The notes under the pieces: model-generated
The model's input: the letters and a program-made list of their open reading frames with translations, nothing else
What the model was told of the DNA's origin: nothing
Databases searched by the model: none
Program-made: the position numbers and the translations under genes
NCBI GenBank assembly: GCA_964641065.1
Contig: CAZXJZ010000005.1
Span: 92-64,091, forward strand
Direction of reading: 5' to 3'
Source of the DNA: an uncultured Hyphomicrobiales bacterium
GTDB lineage: Bacteria; Pseudomonadota; Alphaproteobacteria; Rhizobiales; Xanthobacteraceae
Length of the DNA: 64,000 bases
In this document: piece by piece, positions 29,883 to 37,589 of the stretch
Layout of the letters: each line of letters opens with the position of its first letter
How positions within the stretch are numbered: position 1 is the first letter of the stretch

Positions 29883-30686
29883 GTGTTTGCAATGGAATGC
29901 CAGTCTATGCGTAACCGTTATGGACTCGTCGAAATCGACGGCCAGGTCATCACCACCCGCAATCTCTCCGACTCGGTCGGCGCGATCGTGCGGCGTCTCG
30001 GTGAGATGAAGTCGTTTCTGGTTTGCACCCTCAACCTCGACCACCTTGTGAAGCTGCGCAGCGATCCGCGTTTTCGCGATGCCTATGCAAAGGCCGAGAT
30101 CGTAATGCCGGACGGATTTCCGATCGTTGCCTTTGCAAAGATGGAGGGCGTGTCTCTCGAACGGGCGACCGGCGCCGACCTGATCGTGCCGCTATGCCGC
30201 GAGGCCGCAGCGCTGGGCTATCCGGTCTATCTGTTCGGCTCGACATTCGAAACGCTGCGCGTCGCCGGCCGCAATCTTTCGGCGACGATCCCGGGCCTGC
30301 AGATCGCGGGAATCATGGCGCCGCCGCAAAACTTCGACGTCGCCTCGCCGATGTCCGACGACGCCATCGCCATCATCGGACAATCCGGCGCGCGCATCTG
30401 TCTTGTTGCCCTGGGAGCGCCACGGCAGGAGTTGTTTTCGGCACGCGCGGTCGACAAGACAGCGGGCATGGCATTCCTGGGAATCGGCGCGTCGCTCGAT
30501 TTCATCGCCGGCAGTCAGACGCGCTGTCCGCTGCTGGTGCGGAAACTCAATCTCGAATGGGCGTGGCGCGCTGCGTCCAATCCGCGTCGTCTGGTGCCGC
30601 GTTATGCGGCCTGCGCTGCGTTATTTGCGAGGCTCTACGCCGGCTATGCATGGCGCAACTGGTGGCCGGCTCAGTCCCGCTCCTGA
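29883..30686 (+). CDS. WecB/TagA/CpsF (GT26) glycosyltransferase
   Basis: TLNLDH, PDGFPIV, ERATGADL, VALGAPRQE, GASLDF, LEWAWR..PRRL..RY; start may be ATG 29907. Confidence 0.93.
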   Translation: MFAMECQSMRNRYGLVEIDGQVITTRNLSDSVGAIVRRLGEMKSFLVCTLNLDHLVKLRSDPRFRDAYAKAEIVMPDGFPIVAFAKMEGVSLERATGADLIVPLCREAAALGYPVYLFGSTFETLRVAGRNLSATIPGLQIAGIMAPPQNFDVASPMSDDAIAIIGQSGARICLVALGAPRQELFSARAVDKTAGMAFLGIGASLDFIAGSQTRCPLLVRKLNLEWAWRAASNPRRLVPRYAACAALFARLYAGYAWRNWWPAQSRS

Positions 30687-30699
30687 AGCGCGGCTGAGA

Positions 30700-31353
30700 T
30701 CAGCGCATCGATATCTTGCGCGCGAAAAAGCCTTCGGCAAATCGCTCAGGCGCGCGGCACTCCATTCCCCGCAACCGGGCGAGGCCCTGGAAGGTATCGG
30801 CATCGAACCATTGCTTGGAGCGCTGGGTCGCGAAATGCTTGTCCAGCAGCTCGATCTTGCGCTGCAGGATTGCGGCCGGCATCGACACGAAAAGGTTCGG
30901 CTGCCCGAGATCGCCATCCCATTTCGGGATTTCGTATTCGAGGATGAAGTGATCGCGGAACGTGTTCCAGGTCAGCCGGCACACCTCGCGATGATCCTGA
31001 TGCGCATCGTCCTTGCGATGCGTGAAGATCAGATCGGGTGACACGCGCGCCTTGAGGTCTTCAAACCACGACTTGATGGCCTCACCCTGCTGGGGGAAAA
31101 AACCGTCGCGGAACGCAAGGGTCTGGATGCTCTGCCCAGCCGCGCCGGCAAGGAAGTCGGTCGCCGAGTTGCGCGCTTCCGCTTCACGATCGCCGGCGGC
31201 GCTCAGGACGCACCAATGCACGTCGAGCCGGATTCCGCGAGCAATCAGGCCGAGCAGGGTGCCGCCCAGTCCGATCTCGATATCGTCGGAATGGGCGCCC
31301 AGGCACAGAACGGACAAACGCTCACCGGGAGCGGGCAGATTGAGGGAGAGCAT
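30700..31353 (-). CDS. PIG-L/LmbE family de-N-acetylase
   Basis: GAHSDDIEIG and DAHQDH zinc-binding motifs. Confidence 0.92.
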   Translation of the reverse strand: MLSLNLPAPGERLSVLCLGAHSDDIEIGLGGTLLGLIARGIRLDVHWCVLSAAGDREAEARNSATDFLAGAAGQSIQTLAFRDGFFPQQGEAIKSWFEDLKARVSPDLIFTHRKDDAHQDHREVCRLTWNTFRDHFILEYEIPKWDGDLGQPNLFVSMPAAILQRKIELLDKHFATQRSKQWFDADTFQGLARLRGMECRAPERFAEGFFARKISMR

Positions 31354-31360
31354 GTGAGCG

Positions 31361-32170
31361 TCAGATCCGCCGGACCAGATTGCGTTCGCGCTGGTTCTCG
31401 CTTTCGGGCGCCCAGGGCATCTGGCCGTTCTCGACCATTTCCTCCAGCACCTGGCGGTCCCGCAGCGTGTCCATGGCGCGCCAGAACCCTTCGTATTTGA
31501 AGGCGACCAGGTTGTTGTCCTTGATCAACCGGTTGAAGGGTTGCAGCACCAGCTCTTCGCCATCCTGGATGTAGTCGAAGATCTCGTTGCGGAAGATGAA
31601 GTAGCCGCCGTTGATCCAGACTTCGGACTCGGTGTTCGCGCGAAGCCGCTTGACCAGGCCGCCTTCGTCGAATTCGGCGAGATGGAAGTTGAACGGCGGG
31701 CGGACCGCGATGAAGCAGGCGAGCTTACCGCTGGCCTTGAAGAAGTCGATCATCTCGGGCAATGGCGCGTCGGTGAGCCCGTCGCTGTAATTCGCCAGAA
31801 AGATCTCTTCGTCCTTGACGTGTTCCTTCACCGCAACCAGCCGCTGGCCGATGTTGCGCCACACGCCGGTGTCGATCATGGTCAGGCGCCAGTCCGGTTG
31901 CTGTTCGCCGAGGATCTCGATTTTCTTGCCGAATTGCGACACCACGCAATTGTGGGTGGCGGCGGAATCGAGGTGCAGGAAATAGTCCTTGATGACGTTG
32001 GCCTTGTAGCCGAGGCAGAGCACGAAATCGCGGTGCCCGTACCGGCTGTAATATTGCATGACGTGCCACATGATCGGGTGCGATCCGACCGGGATCATCG
32101 GCTTCGGAATGCTTTCGGAATATTCCCGAATGCGGGTTCCAAGGCCTCCGCAGAACAATACGACCTTCAT
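31361..32170 (-). CDS. rfbF: Glucose-1-phosphate cytidylyltransferase-like
   Basis: GGLGTRIRE..PKPMIPVG, CLGYKANVIKDYF, LANYSDG, INGGYF, GFWRAMDTLRD. Confidence 0.88.
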   Translation of the reverse strand: MKVVLFCGGLGTRIREYSESIPKPMIPVGSHPIMWHVMQYYSRYGHRDFVLCLGYKANVIKDYFLHLDSAATHNCVVSQFGKKIEILGEQQPDWRLTMIDTGVWRNIGQRLVAVKEHVKDEEIFLANYSDGLTDAPLPEMIDFFKASGKLACFIAVRPPFNFHLAEFDEGGLVKRLRANTESEVWINGGYFIFRNEIFDYIQDGEELVLQPFNRLIKDNNLVAFKYEGFWRAMDTLRDRQVLEEMVENGQMPWAPESENQRERNLVRRI

Positions 32171-32544
32171 CGGTGATCCGCCTGCTTTTGTCCCGGTGGC
32201 GATGAGTAACGCGTTGTTGAACTCACGCCGCTGCGCCGGGTTTTCTCTTTGTCATCTCGCACCACAATCTCTGCGCAAGCGTCGGTGCGGAATCAAGTGT
32301 TGCACGCATCGTAGTCGCAGGATGTGAGCGTTAGCGTAAACAGCAATAACGACCGGTGTTTTCAGCGCCTCGTTGATCGAGCGCGTTTATCGTAGATCGG
32401 TGCGCACCACAAAAGAGCAAGTCCGAGAAGCGCGTTGAAGCATCGATAAAATTGCAACGTCCTGCTTAAGGTTAACGTGCGGCTGTCCAGCCGCTTCGCG
32501 CGCCGCGTGATAGCAGATCATCAGATATCGACGAGGAGGCCAGC

Positions 32545-33123
32545 GTGATCTTCACGGAAACCAAGCTGAAGGGCGCATACATTATCGAGCTCGAACGGCG
32601 CGAGGATTCGCGCGGATTTTTCGCGCGCGGGTTCTGCCAGAACGAGTTCAGGGCGCACGGATTGAAGCCGACCGTGGCCCAGGGCAACATTGCCTCGAAT
32701 ATCAAGGCCGGTACGCTTCGCGGCATGCATTTTCAGTATCCGCCCGCGGCGGAGAGCAAGCTCGTTCGCTGCACGCGCGGCGCGATCTACGACATCATCG
32801 TCGACCTCAGACCGGAAAGCTCGACCTATCTCCAGCATATCGGCGTCGAGCTGAACGAGGACAATCAGCGCGCGCTCTATGTGCCGGAGCGTTTCGCGCA
32901 CGGCTATCAGACCCTGACCGACAAGACCGACACCAGCTATCTGGTCGGCGAATTTTATACGCCGGATGCGGAGGGCGGGCTGCTCTATGACGATCCGAGC
33001 CTGAAACTGAACTGGCCGCTGCCGGTAAGCGTGATCTCCGAGAAGGACCAGAAATTCCCGCTCTATCGCGAGATCGAGGGTGAACTGAAGCGCAAGATGA
33101 GCCGCGTGCTCGAACCGGCATGA
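32545..33123 (+). CDS. rfbC: NDP-4-keto-sugar 3,5-epimerase (RmlC/RfbC cupin)
   Basis: DSRGFFAR, GTLRGMHFQ, KLVRCTRGAIYDIIVDLRPES, HGYQTL, ISEKD. Confidence 0.93.
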   Translation: MIFTETKLKGAYIIELERREDSRGFFARGFCQNEFRAHGLKPTVAQGNIASNIKAGTLRGMHFQYPPAAESKLVRCTRGAIYDIIVDLRPESSTYLQHIGVELNEDNQRALYVPERFAHGYQTLTDKTDTSYLVGEFYTPDAEGGLLYDDPSLKLNWPLPVSVISEKDQKFPLYREIEGELKRKMSRVLEPA

Positions 33124-33168
33124 GCCGGGACGGATCGATCACAGGCCTGTGCTGACAAGGGATATGAC

Positions 33169-34494
33169 ATGATACTCGTCGATGACGCTCTCCAGGCCCG
33201 CGAGGCCGCCGGCAATCCGATCCGCGTTGGCGTGGTTGGCGCTGGCTTCATGTGCCAGGGCCTGACCAATCAGATCGCGCATAGCGTTGCGGGGATGCAG
33301 GTCGTCGCGATCTCGAACCGGAAGGTCGAGCGCGCCGCCGGCGTGTTCAAGTATTCCGGCTATCAGGACGTCGCATTCGCCGATACACAGCGCGCGCTTG
33401 ACGACGCGATTGCGTGCGGGCGGCCGGTGGTCACCGAGGATGCGTTCCTGCTTGCACGATCCGGCCTGGTCGATGTTCTGGTCGACGCCACCGGCTCGGT
33501 CGAGTTCGGCGCCCGGGTGACGCTTGAAGCGTTCAAGCACGGCAAGGACGTCGTGCTGTTGAATGCGGAGATCGACGCCACGATCGGTCCCATTCTCCAG
33601 ACCTATGCGGCAAAGCACGGCGTCATCCTGTCGGCCTGCGACGGCGACGAGCCGGGCGCGCAGATGAACCTGTATCGCTGGGTGAAGGGTCTCGGCCTGA
33701 CGCCGCGGGTGATCGGCAACGTCAAGGGGCTGCAGGATCCTTATCGCAATCCGACCACGCAACAGGGCTTCGCCGAGAAGTGGGGCCAGAATCCGGCGAT
33801 GGTCACGAGCTTTGCCGATGGCTCCAAGATCAGCTTCGAACAGGCGATCGTGGCGAATGCGACCGGCTTCAAGGTGCGGTCGCGCGGCATGTCGCGCGGG
33901 CTGGAATATCGCGGCGACGTCATGCAGATCGGCCAGCTCTACGAAATCGACGAGTGCCGTCGGCTCGGTGGCATCATCGATTACGTGGTCGGTACGCCGC
34001 TGACCAAGGTCTATGTGCTGGCGGAACACACCGATCCGAAGCAGCAGCACTATCTCAATCTCTACAAGATGGGCGAGGGGCCGCTCTATTCCTTCTTCGT
34101 TCCGTATCATCTGGTTCATTTCGAAGTGCCGAACGCGATCGCCCGCGTCGCGCTGTTCCGCGATCCGGTCGCCAAGCCGCTCGGCGGTCCGGTGGTGGAG
34201 GTCTGTGCGGTTGCCAAGCGCGATCTGAAGGCCGGCGAAGTTCTCGACGATTACGGCATGTACATGACCTATGGCGAAGCCGTGAATGCCGAGGAGATGT
34301 GCGAGCAGCGCTACCTGCCGGAAGGATTGGTCGAAGGCTGCAAGCTGGTTCGCGACATCAGCAAGGACGGCGTGATCCGGTATGACGATGTGGTGCTGCC
34401 GCAGGGCCGCCTGTCGGATCGTCTGCGCGCCGAACAATACCGCCATTTCCGCGGAGCGACCTGGCTGGAAGACGCCCTGAAAGTCGCCGCCTGA
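33169..34494 (+). CDS. NAD(P)-dependent oxidoreductase with C-terminal SAF domain (homoserine-dehydrogenase-like, uncharacterised)
   Basis: VGVVGAGFM Rossmann motif, DGDEPG, SFADGSK, SAF-type AVAKRDLKAGEVLD...LVRDISKDGVIRYDDV. Confidence 0.8.
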   Translation: MILVDDALQAREAAGNPIRVGVVGAGFMCQGLTNQIAHSVAGMQVVAISNRKVERAAGVFKYSGYQDVAFADTQRALDDAIACGRPVVTEDAFLLARSGLVDVLVDATGSVEFGARVTLEAFKHGKDVVLLNAEIDATIGPILQTYAAKHGVILSACDGDEPGAQMNLYRWVKGLGLTPRVIGNVKGLQDPYRNPTTQQGFAEKWGQNPAMVTSFADGSKISFEQAIVANATGFKVRSRGMSRGLEYRGDVMQIGQLYEIDECRRLGGIIDYVVGTPLTKVYVLAEHTDPKQQHYLNLYKMGEGPLYSFFVPYHLVHFEVPNAIARVALFRDPVAKPLGGPVVEVCAVAKRDLKAGEVLDDYGMYMTYGEAVNAEEMCEQRYLPEGLVEGCKLVRDISKDGVIRYDDVVLPQGRLSDRLRAEQYRHFRGATWLEDALKVAA

Positions 34495-34713
34495 TCACTG
34501 CCCAAGTCAGCGAAGCCGCCGGCATCTCCATCTGAGATCCGGCGGGCCTTCGATCGTGCGCGGTGTTACAAGCTTTTTGGTTCAGGGCGGCTGGCGTGGC
34601 CAGCAATTGCGGTAGCGCTCATGCACCGCAGATGAGGCACTTAAGGCTGCGTGCAGGAAGAGACGTCGGAAGACAGTCAGGCCGCGCGTGTTTACGCGCG
34701 GCCGCGCCGTCTG

Positions 34714-35760
34714 TCAGGCGGCGACGAGCTGGGTATGGCGGAGGCGGGAGTCGAGAACGCCGTCCGACAGCAGCATCTTGATATGGCTGATGCGCTGATA
34801 GCGCGGCCCCTCGAAATCCTCCAGCGTCAGGCGCGCCTCGCGATAGGCCCTGTAGAGCTGTTCGGCGCCCCGTTGCGCGTCCCATTGCGGCTTGAACGCA
34901 GGCAGCTTGCGTCGGATCTTGTCGAAGTTCACGCGATAGGAACGCTTGTCCGGGCCGGCATCGTCGGCAAATGCAAGCTTGCATCCGGGCACGGTCCTGG
35001 CGACGATTTCCGCGAGGTCGCGGATGCGGTAATTGTGTTCGGTCTGGCCGACATTGAAGGCTTCGTTGAAAACGGCGTCTTCCGGGGCCTCGAGCGCGGC
35101 GATGAAGGCGCGTGAAATGTCCTCGATATGAACAATCGGGCGCCAGGGCGTGCCGTCCGATTTCAGGAAGATGTTTCCCGTGGTGAGAGCGAAGGCCACA
35201 AGATTGTTCAGGACGATGTCGAACCGAAGCCGCGGCGAAACGCCATAAGCGGTGGCCGGGCGCAGGTAGACCGGGCAGAAGCCGTCACCCGCCAGCCTCG
35301 ATATGCCCCGTTCGGACATCACCTTGGATTCGCCGTACGCGGTGACCGGGTTGAGAGGGGCGGTTTCGTCGATCATCGTATCCCCGGCCTGGCCATAATT
35401 GCTGCACGAGGATGCAAACAGGAAGCGCCGGACCCCGGCGCTTTTCGCCAGCTCAGCGAGCCGAACGCTCGCGCGGTGATTGATATCGTCTGTCAGGCCG
35501 GGCTGCAGGTCGCCGAGGGGATCGTTCGAGAGCGCTGCCAGATGCACGACTGCGTCGATGCCCGCCAGATCGCTGGCCGTGATGTCTCGCGTGTCTTTGC
35601 GGATCGCGGGAACCTTCACGATATCGCCACCGTTCGCGAACGTGCATCGCGAATATAGATCGCTGTCCAGGCCAACGACGTCATGTCCGGCCTTGATCAG
35701 CATCGGCGTCATGACGGTGCCGATGTATCCCATATGGCCGGTAAGAAGAACGCGCATCAT
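34714..35760 (-). CDS. Extended SDR, NDP-sugar epimerase/reductase
   Basis: [45 protein letters not shown]. Confidence 0.92.
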
Positions 35761-36158
35761 TCACTCCATATACTAAGCTCGGGGCCATTCTTCATGCAGC
35801 GTCCGCGCGACAATCGTGCTGCGGGAGGACGCCATGCGGCCATCGTCGTCGCGAAGCGACGTCTCGGATCGGCGGAGGGGAGCGCAATTCGCGCCAGTCA
35901 GTCAACGATGCCGGTCAATTAAGACTAACGTGACGTCGTAGCGGCTGTGTGAAGCAAAGCCCTGCGCGCACTTATCCATGAAGATCGTTGTCGGCACGAG
36001 CGGCGCGGCCCCGTATCCATGCTTGCCCGACCGCGCGACCGTTTAGGTTAATGCGCATTTGGCGGCGCGGCGGAAGTTTCGCCCCACATTGAGCGGCATT
36101 GTCATGCGATAGATCGGGCGAACGCCCACCCGGGCCCTGTTGCTGGACAGCTCAGTAG

Positions 36159-37589
36159 ATGATCAACGTCGGCCGGCCCCCGATCGTTACCGGATATGGT
36201 CACGAGCACGTGACAGGCTCGCGGCCGGCCATGTCGCCGGCCTCGGCAATCATGCTCTTCGTGGCGATGTTTTTCTTGCTTCCGGGCAGCCTTCTTCCAT
36301 CCATTGGATGGCACTATTTTGGCGGCGGACCGGAATTCCAGAAGCTCCATCCGGCGACTTACCTGCTGGTGGCCGTGTTTCCGCTGGCGCTGATTGTCGA
36401 TGGTGCTTTTCGTCGGCGCTGCATGGTTCAGCTGACCACGGATTACGCCTTCGTTGCGTTCGGAATTGCCGCACTGGCGACGTCGCTGTTCGCAATCGTC
36501 GCGCGGGGTGCATCGGCCGCGAATTTGATCGAGACATTTGCCTTGGCCCTGATCGTGAGGTTGTCCATCGTGGCGATGCCACGCGGGCCGATGATCTGGT
36601 TCCGGCGATTTATCGATCTGCTCTTCATTGTCGGGGTCGTGACGGTCCTTGGCGAATTTGTCCTTCGTCGCAGCATCATTTTCGAGAACGTGGCATTCTA
36701 CGATCCCATCACCCAGCAGATCGTGACCACTGAATTCCGCGCCGCCGGCATTTTCGGTCACCCGCTTGCCGCAGCCGGGTTCTTCGCCTTGTACGCCATC
36801 CTGAATCTCGTATCGACGCCGATGCGGCTGACAATCGGGTGTATGACCAGACTGCTGCTATCCGCCCTTGCATTTCTGGCGATCTTCCCGACCGGCGGTC
36901 GCTCCGGACTCCTGGTCGGTGGGCTGATCATGGCTGCGTTTGTCGCATTGGCGGCCTTTCGCAGCCTGGCAAGAGGATCTTTCAGCAAGGCAGGACTTGT
37001 CTGGTTCGTCCTGTTCCTGACCTGCGTGATCCTGATGCTGCCGGTCATGTATCATTTCGATGTTTTCGATACCATGCTCGCGCGCTTCGCGAGAGACGAC
37101 GGCAGTACGTTGAGCCGCGAATATGCGTTGCAAATCTTGCTGGAGTCGCGCCCCGAAGATCTCTGGTTTGGAATGCCGTTGGCGGATGTTGTGAACCTGC
37201 AGAGGCAATTCGGGCTGGTTGCGATCGAGAATGGCTGGATCAATTTCGCACTGATCTGCGGCCTCGTATTCACGATCCCGCTGCTGGTCAGCTATCTCCT
37301 GTTTATGTTCAAATCCAACCCGCGCTATTGCACCTCCGGCATCTACTACGTCGCTCTGCTTCAGCTTATTCTGTCAAACGCGACCAATGATCTGTGGGCG
37401 AAGAATACCGCCTTTGCCACCGGCCTCGCGGTCATTTTCGCGTTCCTGCGAAAAGATCTGGCCGTTCCGCAGGAGGAGCGGCGCGCGTATGCACTTCGCA
37501 AGGCTCCGATCGGTCGACACGCGGTGTCTCGCCACTCGGCGCGGATGATCGGCCATCCTGCCGGCGCGCAGCGGTTCGGAGAGCGATGA
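36159..37589 (+). CDS. Multi-TM polysaccharide polymerase (Wzy / VpsF-family-like)
   Basis: About 11 TMs; KLHPATYL, RAAGIFGHPLAAA, TGGRSGL, IENGWI motifs of O-antigen polymerase/ligase type; sits among GTs. Confidence 0.75.
   Translation: MINVGRPPIVTGYGHEHVTGSRPAMSPASAIMLFVAMFFLLPGSLLPSIGWHYFGGGPEFQKLHPATYLLVAVFPLALIVDGAFRRRCMVQLTTDYAFVAFGIAALATSLFAIVARGASAANLIETFALALIVRLSIVAMPRGPMIWFRRFIDLLFIVGVVTVLGEFVLRRSIIFENVAFYDPITQQIVTTEFRAAGIFGHPLAAAGFFALYAILNLVSTPMRLTIGCMTRLLLSALAFLAIFPTGGRSGLLVGGLIMAAFVALAAFRSLARGSFSKAGLVWFVLFLTCVILMLPVMYHFDVFDTMLARFARDDGSTLSREYALQILLESRPEDLWFGMPLADVVNLQRQFGLVAIENGWINFALICGLVFTIPLLVSYLLFMFKSNPRYCTSGIYYVALLQLILSNATNDLWAKNTAFATGLAVIFAFLRKDLAVPQEERRAYALRKAPIGRHAVSRHSARMIGHPAGAQRFGER

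Follow-up and report, generated by a model that had tools for sequence, protein, structure and literature searches.

A five-gene cassette without a 4,6-dehydratase that probably reaches its 4-keto nucleotide sugar by oxidation at C4

The DNA examined here, referred to as the window, is a 64,000-nucleotide stretch of contig CAZXJZ010000005.1 from an uncultured Hyphomicrobiales bacterium (assembly GCA_964641065.1). Between positions 30700 and 35760, inside a polysaccharide locus of the Wza/Wzc/Wzx type, it carries five open reading frames (Table 1). These encode a PIG-L-type hydrolase, a divergent RfbF-like nucleotidyltransferase (CytT), an RmlC-type epimerase, a DRL-like oxidoreductase that ends in a SAF domain, and an extended short-chain dehydrogenase/reductase (SDR). 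The genes form three transcription units rather than a single operon: CytT and PIG-L, separated by 7 bp, lie on one strand; RmlC and the DRL-like gene lie on the other; and the SDR gene stands alone on the first. A scan for promoters and terminators from 30400 to 36300 returned nothing above shuffled expectation. The cassette probably constitutes a self-contained nucleotide-sugar pathway that reaches the 4-keto substrate of RmlC by oxidation at C4 and not by 4,6-dehydration.

Table 1. Genes of the cassette in the window, related operons, and additional features discussed in the text. Locations without a prefix are window positions; the prefixes L and C78 denote public loci and a second contig of the same genome, respectively.
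Feature	Location	Strand	Profile match or remark
PIG-L/LmbE-family zinc hydrolase, 217 aa	30700-31353	-	PF02585, 55.2 bits (cut-off 28.2)
CytT, divergent RfbF-like sugar-phosphate nucleotidyltransferase, 269 aa	31361-32170	-	TIGR02623, 222.6 bits
RmlC-type NDP-4-keto-hexose 3,5-epimerase, 192 aa	32545-33123	+	TIGR01221, 168.6 bits; PF00908, E 5.8e-61
DRL-family (DLO1-type) NADP(H) oxidoreductase with C-terminal SAF domain, 441 aa	33169-34494	+	PF21135 (DRL_cat), 156.2 bits (cut-off 27)
Extended SDR with SSCSxYG...YGESK motif, 348 aa	34714-35760	-	PF01370, 150 bits
VpsF-family membrane protein, 476 aa	36159-37589	+	No Pfam match; NF038256, 170.6 bits (cut-off 150)
Second DRL-family gene of the same genome	C78:8398-9711		32% identical to the window enzyme
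Operon RfbF, RfbG, RmlC, DRL	L101:5565-9290; L107:5499-9311		RfbF 406-449 bits, RfbG 479-519 bits; no other reductase
Operon true RfbF, UXS/ArnA-like SDR, NDP-sugar 6-dehydrogenase, RmlC, DRL	e.g. L098:4298-9278		L095-L099, Bacteroidetes
L-2-hydroxyglutarate oxidase (LhgO), examples in related loci	L135:278-1492; L082:3949-5166

The initial annotation had described the cassette as lacking a 4,6-dehydratase, and this absence extends to the genome as a whole. A search of the draft assembly (511 contigs, 91.7% complete) for the CDP-, dTDP-, and GDP-hexose 4,6-dehydratases (RfbG, RmlB, and GMD) and for RmlD, any of which might act in trans, gave no match above the profile cut-offs. The cassette RmlC is the sole RmlC found in the genome. 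Because RmlC needs a 4-keto substrate and neither RfbG, RmlB, nor GMD was detected, no source of such a sugar was found outside the cassette itself.

The co-occurrence of the five genes was followed in 161 public loci, which together span at least eight phyla. Set 1 comprises 80 loci found via the DRL-like protein, which is 75-96% identical to that of the window; they come from Alphaproteobacteria, Acidobacteriota, Verrucomicrobiota, Nitrospira, Gemmatimonadales, Planctomycetes, Dormibacterota, and others. Set 2 comprises 81 loci from Nostoc, other cyanobacteria, and Bacteroidetes, with DRL-like proteins that are 44-62% identical. In 78 of the 80 set 1 loci, RmlC is encoded immediately upstream of the DRL-like enzyme, and the pair recurs in 78 of the 81 loci of set 2; over both sets, this arrangement is seen in about 150 of the 161 loci. 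Most set 1 loci contain all five genes, usually as a co-directional operon in the order SDR-RmlC-DRL-CytT-PIGL, of which the window cassette is a rearranged version. An SDR homologue is present within the fetched flanks of most set 1 loci, and an SSCS-type SDR is present in 60/81 loci of set 2. RfbF is found in at least 26 of the 81 set 2 loci and PIG-L in none of them (0/81). Flippases, glycosyltransferases, and pyruvyl transferases are other neighbors of the cassette, and neither an aminotransferase nor an acetyltransferase is conserved among those neighbors. The grouping goes far past chance and is not a random neighborhood.

The SDR is likely the C4 oxidase. Its best sequence match in the PDB is to entries 6VO6 and 6VO8 (E 2.7e-35, 30-31% identity), with the next match at 2e-21; the titles of both entries name Cj1427, which in Campylobacter oxidizes a GDP-heptose at C4 with NAD. 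The SDR motif S-S-C-S-N-Y-G places Cys-Ser where dehydratases carry their acid/base pair (Asp-Glu or Asp-Lys), in agreement with the initial annotation, and the SSCS motif is found in 117 of the 161 loci. When scored against the dehydratase models (RfbG TIGR02622, RmlB TIGR01181, and GMD), the protein falls far under the cut-offs (25.7 bits against 278 and 43.6 bits against 365). Residues G30 and D32 are invariant, and an Asp at the end of beta-2, as here, is of the NAD type. A structure model of the protein has a pLDDT (predicted local distance difference test) score of 92.5. Cys119, at the position of the dehydratase Asp, is itself invariant in 30/30 aligned SSCS-type SDRs and could have a catalytic role of its own.

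A second line of evidence comes from the flanks of the related cassettes. Cj1427 holds NADH tightly and reoxidizes it with 2-oxoglutarate, yielding L-2-hydroxyglutarate; an RmlC-type epimerase acts next on its sugar product, followed by a reductase (PMC10680097). L-2-hydroxyglutarate oxidase (LhgO) is encoded within the fetched flanks of 9 of the 80 loci of set 1 and 37 of the 81 loci of set 2, or 46/161 in all, with matches of 595-628 bits to NF008726 (cut-off 299). These loci belong to Verrucomicrobiota, Dormibacterota, Cyanobacteria, Bacteroidetes, and an alphaproteobacterial metagenome-assembled genome, and the position of the gene varies among them (examples in Table 1). There would be little obvious reason for this linkage if the SDR did not act in the manner of Cj1427; LhgO is probably a built-in recycler of the by-product of such a dehydrogenase. 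Therefore, the evidence favors a C4 oxidase, an NAD-dependent CDP-hexose C4-dehydrogenase of the Cj1427 type, over the epimerase or reductase first suggested for the SDR.

These observations also bear on the possibility that the pathway is an ordinary one in which the SDR acts as an unrecognized 4,6-dehydratase, or in which the dehydratase gene was simply not assembled, such that the product would be a common 6-deoxy-L-hexose, e.g., CDP-L-rhamnose. The incompleteness of the draft genome allows for this, and some related cassettes do use RfbG. However, the acid/base dyad is absent from the SDR, the SSCS motif that replaces it is conserved in the majority of loci noted above, and the dehydratase scores, at 26-44 bits, do not approach cut-offs of 278-365. 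Moreover, dehydratase signature motifs are rare across the 161 loci and occur in cassette types other than those with the SSCS-type SDR, and a dehydratase would leave the linkage to LhgO without explanation. We consider this explanation highly improbable. Oxidation of C4 without dehydration, as the initial annotation had envisaged, is judged the most likely chemistry given the missing dehydratase, the missing dyad, and the likeness to Cj1427.

The epimerase offers a view of what is retained at C6. The window RmlC scores above the TIGR01221 cut-off of 155.75 and has the GMHFQ and KLVRC motifs. In place of the HGF motif, the Phe of which packs against the C6 methyl group, it has HGY. Of 54 cassette RmlC proteins of set 1, 31 have Leu and 21 have Tyr at this position (Leu/Tyr in 52/54). 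In the epimerase CBU1838 of Coxiella burnetii the residue is Met, interpreted by its authors as leaving space for a 6-hydroxyl group (PMC9095892). The replacement of Phe by Leu or Tyr in the cassette enzymes, compared with Met in CBU1838, thus argues for retention of the 6-hydroxyl group.

The DRL-like enzyme likely catalyzes the last, NADPH-dependent reductive step, as judged from its sequence and the company it keeps. It aligns with the Brucella DRL (3UPL/3UPY) with an E value of 6e-65. The two share the family PF21135, a three-domain layout, and an NADP-type cofactor motif, which in the window enzyme reads Ser-Asn-Arg-Lys after beta-2; the corresponding [NS]-R-[RK] pattern is near-universal in its relatives. 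Residues K191, D167/E168, D225, K228, and E232 are kept. In contrast, Lys193 and Thr229 of the Brucella enzyme, which is a reductoisomerase of DXP (1-deoxy-D-xylulose 5-phosphate), are replaced by Leu and Ile. These residues are two of the three anchors for fosmidomycin or phosphate, the third being the retained Lys191, and their loss is the pattern of the uncharacterised DLO1 clade (PMC3847144). A function as a DXP reductoisomerase in isoprenoid synthesis is ruled out by the loss of these substrate anchors.

The position of the DRL-like enzyme in the pathway is best seen by comparing three cassette variants, which share the RmlC-DRL pair and differ in the enzymes that precede it. The first, with the SSCS-type SDR, accounts for 117/161 loci. 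The second has a genuine RfbF and a genuine CDP-glucose 4,6-dehydratase, RfbG (L101-L103 and L107). The third has an NDP-sugar 6-dehydrogenase and a UXS/ArnA-like SDR (L095-L099 and five set 1 loci); the operon of L095-L099 implies a route from CDP-glucuronate to a CDP-4-keto-pentose, of which we know of no description. In the operons of L101 and L107, the 4-keto group has already been made by RfbG and no other reductase is encoded, so that the DRL-like enzyme occupies the position of RmlD.

The initial annotation had given C4 oxidation to the SAF-containing DRL-like enzyme; in this opposite order, that enzyme would act on CDP-glucose, and the SDR would be a final RmlD-like 4-ketoreductase. 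Enzymes with GFO- or homoserine dehydrogenase-like Rossmann folds do oxidize nucleotide sugars, as in the WlbA/GnnA type. In addition, most known NDP-sugar 4-ketoreductases belong to the SDR superfamily, and the window SDR weakly matches the models for RmlD and GDP-fucose synthase. However, the operons of L101 and L107 place the DRL-like enzyme after RfbF, RfbG, and RmlC and contain no SDR reductase; a reductase is needed there, and an oxidase is not. The cofactor motifs, NADP-type in the DRL-like enzyme and an NAD-type Asp in the SDR, run against this order as well, as do the identity of the nearest solved relative of the SDR, the C4 dehydrogenase Cj1427, and the linkage of LhgO to the cassette. 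The reversed order is therefore rather improbable, and the data favor a terminal reductase over a C4 oxidase for the DRL-like enzyme. We infer the roles of both enzymes from homology, cofactor motifs, and the cassette variants.

The remaining two proteins, CytT and PIG-L, appear to function as a pair. CytT aligns over its full length with Salmonella RfbF (PDB 1TZF; E 3.9e-55) and keeps the nucleotide-binding loop G-G-x-G-T-R (CGGLGTRIRE). Its score, 222.6 bits, is below the TIGR02623 cut-off of 300.25, whereas canonical RfbF proteins in related loci score 406-455 bits. Where Salmonella RfbF reads Q-E-K-P-K-G-D, the window CytT reads R-A-N-T-E-S-E, such that the E-K-P motif is lost. The motif is absent, and residues of the ANT or SQE type stand in its place, in all CytT proteins of this subclade that were sampled (that of the window and 40 of its 52 homologues); canonical RfbF proteins of set 2 retain F-R/Q-E-K-P in 25/25 cases. 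The PIG-L protein has intact metal-binding motifs, AHSDD and HQDH, and scores 49.9 bits against the BshB1 equivalog, under the cut-off of 182.5. Its best PDB matches are weak ones to BshB-type deacetylases, and an atlas search with it recovered generic PIG-L clusters only. The PIG-L gene adjoins that of CytT in nearly all set 1 loci and occurs only with the EKP-less CytT, never with canonical RfbF. No signal peptide was found in PIG-L, the catalytic AHSDD of which starts at residue 20; the enzyme would thus act in the cytoplasm and not on an exported polymer. It had been suggested to act on an N-acyl intermediate or on the polymer. The latter is unlikely given the missing signal peptide and the coupling to CytT, whereas an N-acylated small molecule or lipid-linked substrate is possible; for the pair, this may be an N-acylated sugar phosphate or a lipid-linked N-acetylglucosamine (GlcNAc).

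This coupling raises the possibility that the cassette makes an L-hexosamine. Here, the EKP-less CytT would activate GlcNAc-1-phosphate or a related N-acyl hexosamine phosphate, PIG-L would act as the deacylase, and the remaining steps would fall to the SDR, RmlC, and DRL-like enzymes. The PIG-L enzymes with an established function remove N-acetyl groups from molecules that contain GlcNAc, and the weak BshB-type matches of the window protein are of this kind; the restriction of PIG-L to loci with the EKP-less CytT points in the same direction. Such a pathway would resemble the set StrQ, StrP, StrX, and StrU, reportedly once proposed for the N-methyl-L-glucosamine of streptomycin. A DLO1-family member is listed for Streptomyces griseus (PMC3847144). 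On the other hand, the surroundings of the cassette show no conserved aminotransferase or acetyltransferase, and the RmlC, DRL-like, and SDR proteins are 48-67% identical between the subclade that carries PIG-L and the one that lacks it, a level of conservation that speaks for similar sugar substrates in both. To our knowledge, no CDP-hexosamine has been described, which also counts against this route. We regard an L-hexosamine product as unlikely.

We propose the following pathway. CytT would first activate a hexose as its CDP derivative, for which CDP-D-glucose is the default assumption, although the substrate is uncertain. The SDR, with tightly held NAD, would then oxidize C4 and leave the 6-hydroxyl group in place, with the hydride probably passing to 2-oxoglutarate to give L-2-hydroxyglutarate. 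The RmlC-like cupin would epimerize C3 and C5 to give a 4-keto-L-hexose, which the DRL-like enzyme would consume with NADPH. PIG-L would serve as a cytoplasmic amidohydrolase working with CytT on an N-acylated substrate. The glycosyltransferases of the Wzx/Wzy-type locus in which the cassette lies would then receive the final product. A 6-hydroxy sugar of the L-series or a branched sugar, the outcome foreseen in the initial annotation, is judged the most likely product.

Several points weigh against this pathway. With CytT lacking E-K-P and scoring below its cut-off, the pathway may not start from CDP-glucose; the sugar, and perhaps also the nucleotide, could be another. PIG-L stands outside the proposed catalytic steps. 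A dehydratase could sit in the missing ~8% of the draft genome. In structure comparison, the SDR model scores equally well with Cj1427 and with GalE-type 4-epimerases (Z 35.1 versus 35.2), and only the sequence ranking separates them. LhgO was not found in the window, and its sole relative in the genome, encoded on a different contig, stays below the cut-off (206 bits, with 299 required). Finally, the substitution at the HGF position of RmlC tracks cassette type only partly.

The proposed sequence of reactions has counterparts in known systems. It parallels the four steps of the dTDP-L-rhamnose pathway, RmlA-RmlB-RmlC-RmlD (activation, 4-keto formation, 3,5-epimerization, and reduction), except that a non-dehydrating C4 dehydrogenase takes the place of RmlB, such that the 6-hydroxyl group should stay, and the DRL-like enzyme takes that of RmlD. 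The RfbF-RfbG-RmlC-DRL operon of L101 and L107 represents a CDP counterpart to the rhamnose pathway in which the DRL-like enzyme again stands in for RmlD. The closest match in logic is the pathway to GDP-D-glycero-L-gluco-heptose through Cj1427, Cj1430, and Cj1428 of Campylobacter jejuni, in which C4 oxidation by a non-dehydrating SDR is followed by an RmlC-type epimerase and reduction with NADPH. The two systems differ in substrate, a GDP-heptose in Campylobacter and a hexose carried probably by CDP in the cassette, and in the final enzyme, which is an SDR in the former and a DRL/homoserine dehydrogenase-like protein in the latter. The cassette is also unlike the Campylobacter pathway in that LhgO is often encoded alongside it and in that PIG-L is present in the subclade of the window.

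Two outcomes of the DRL-like step are about equally likely, and each, taken singly, falls somewhat short of probable. The first is a plain 4-ketoreduction, giving a CDP-L-hexose of the L-manno or L-talo configuration. The second is a ketol shift of the DXR type coupled to aldehyde reduction, by which the 4-keto-L-hexose might be contracted, giving a furanose with a 3-C-hydroxymethyl branch like that of dihydrohydroxystreptose. The latter draws on an analogy from our own chemical reasoning. In the dihydrostreptose synthase reaction, C2 would move from C3 to the C4 carbonyl and the new aldehyde would be reduced, which is formally the DXR reaction. The dTDP-dihydrostreptose synthase and the UDP-apiose/xylose synthase both act on an NDP-4-keto sugar through a C-C bond shift and aldehyde reduction, although the analogy is mechanistic only; the ring-contracting synthases, known or proposed, are SDRs, whereas the candidate here belongs to the DRL family. 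The RmlC-DRL cassettes appear to be fed 6-deoxy, 6-hydroxy, and, as suggested by the UXS/ArnA-like decarboxylase, pentose 4-keto sugars, which match the precursors of streptose, hydroxystreptose, and apiose. We know of no DRL-family enzyme that has been shown to carry out such a ring contraction.

Coxiella burnetii and S. griseus are organisms known for dihydrohydroxystreptose and streptose, respectively. The dihydrohydroxystreptose-linked region CBU_1834-1838 of C. burnetii appears to contain the same core as the window cassette, namely a transferase, a DRL-like enzyme, an SDR, and RmlC; it is TDP-based and lacks PIG-L, unlike the cassette. According to a supplementary table, the gene order is CBU_1834 (rmlA), CBU_1835 (FAD oxidase), CBU_1836 ('homoserine dehydrogenase'), CBU_1837 (labelled 'UDP-glucose 4-epimerase'), and CBU_1838 (rfbC), and 'homoserine dehydrogenase' is the usual label for the DRL-like family. 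CBU1838 is a 3,5-epimerase with a native substrate that is probably 6-hydroxylated (Cross et al., PMC9095892), and the same work states that the C4 oxidase and the ring-contracting synthase for dihydrohydroxystreptose are unidentified in Coxiella. DLO1 members are listed in both C. burnetii and S. griseus, among many other species (PMC3847144). From annotation and accession order, CBU_1836 appears to be the DLO1 protein of Coxiella.

In the window, the cassette is preceded by genes for Wza, a Wzc-type kinase, two family 4 glycosyltransferases, and a WecG/TagA-type transferase, and it is followed by genes for a VpsF-family protein (Table 1), two family 2 glycosyltransferases, and a Wzx flippase. 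Its G+C content is a little below that of the flanks. Among 120 sampled genomes of the same family, this genome alone has the high-identity cassette type, and two congeners lack it; such sporadic presence indicates that the cassette moves horizontally. More distant DRL-family genes are common in the family: paralogues of 30-36% identity occur in about half of the 120 genomes (best match below 40% in 49), and a second DRL-family gene lies on another contig of this genome. A query with P0034, a possibly Streptomyces-like representative of the family, retrieved a single locus, from Chloroflexia. Two unusual domain arrangements were also observed. P0134, a 722-residue metagenomic protein, has an RmlD domain fused to a DLO1-type DRL domain with an NAD-type (Glu) cofactor motif, and P0003, a 1276-residue protein of Balamuthia mandrillaris (KAL6076453.1), has R3H and SUZ domains ahead of a DRL-like domain that is 50% identical to that of the window. 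Of ten family representatives looked up by cluster, only the Balamuthia protein yielded an informative name.

Our analysis gives a testable role to the DLO1 clade of the DRL family, which has been without an assigned role since its description in 2010-2013. It would also extend 2-oxoglutarate-dependent C4 oxidation, as found for the Campylobacter heptoses, to CDP-hexoses in many phyla. If the DRL-like step is a ring contraction, the cassette makes CDP-dihydrohydroxystreptose or a close analogue, and a sugar regarded so far as exclusive to Coxiella would occur widely among bacteria of soil and fresh water. In that case, CBU_1837 and CBU_1836 would be candidates for the missing C4 oxidase and dihydrohydroxystreptose synthase, the ring contraction that forms streptose may be related, and the RfbG and UXS-like variants would lead to dihydrostreptose-like and apiose-like sugars. 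If the product instead has the L-manno or L-talo configuration, routine analysis would report just mannose or talose. Many environmental polysaccharides may contain an L-hexose or a branched sugar that has been overlooked by routine composition analysis.

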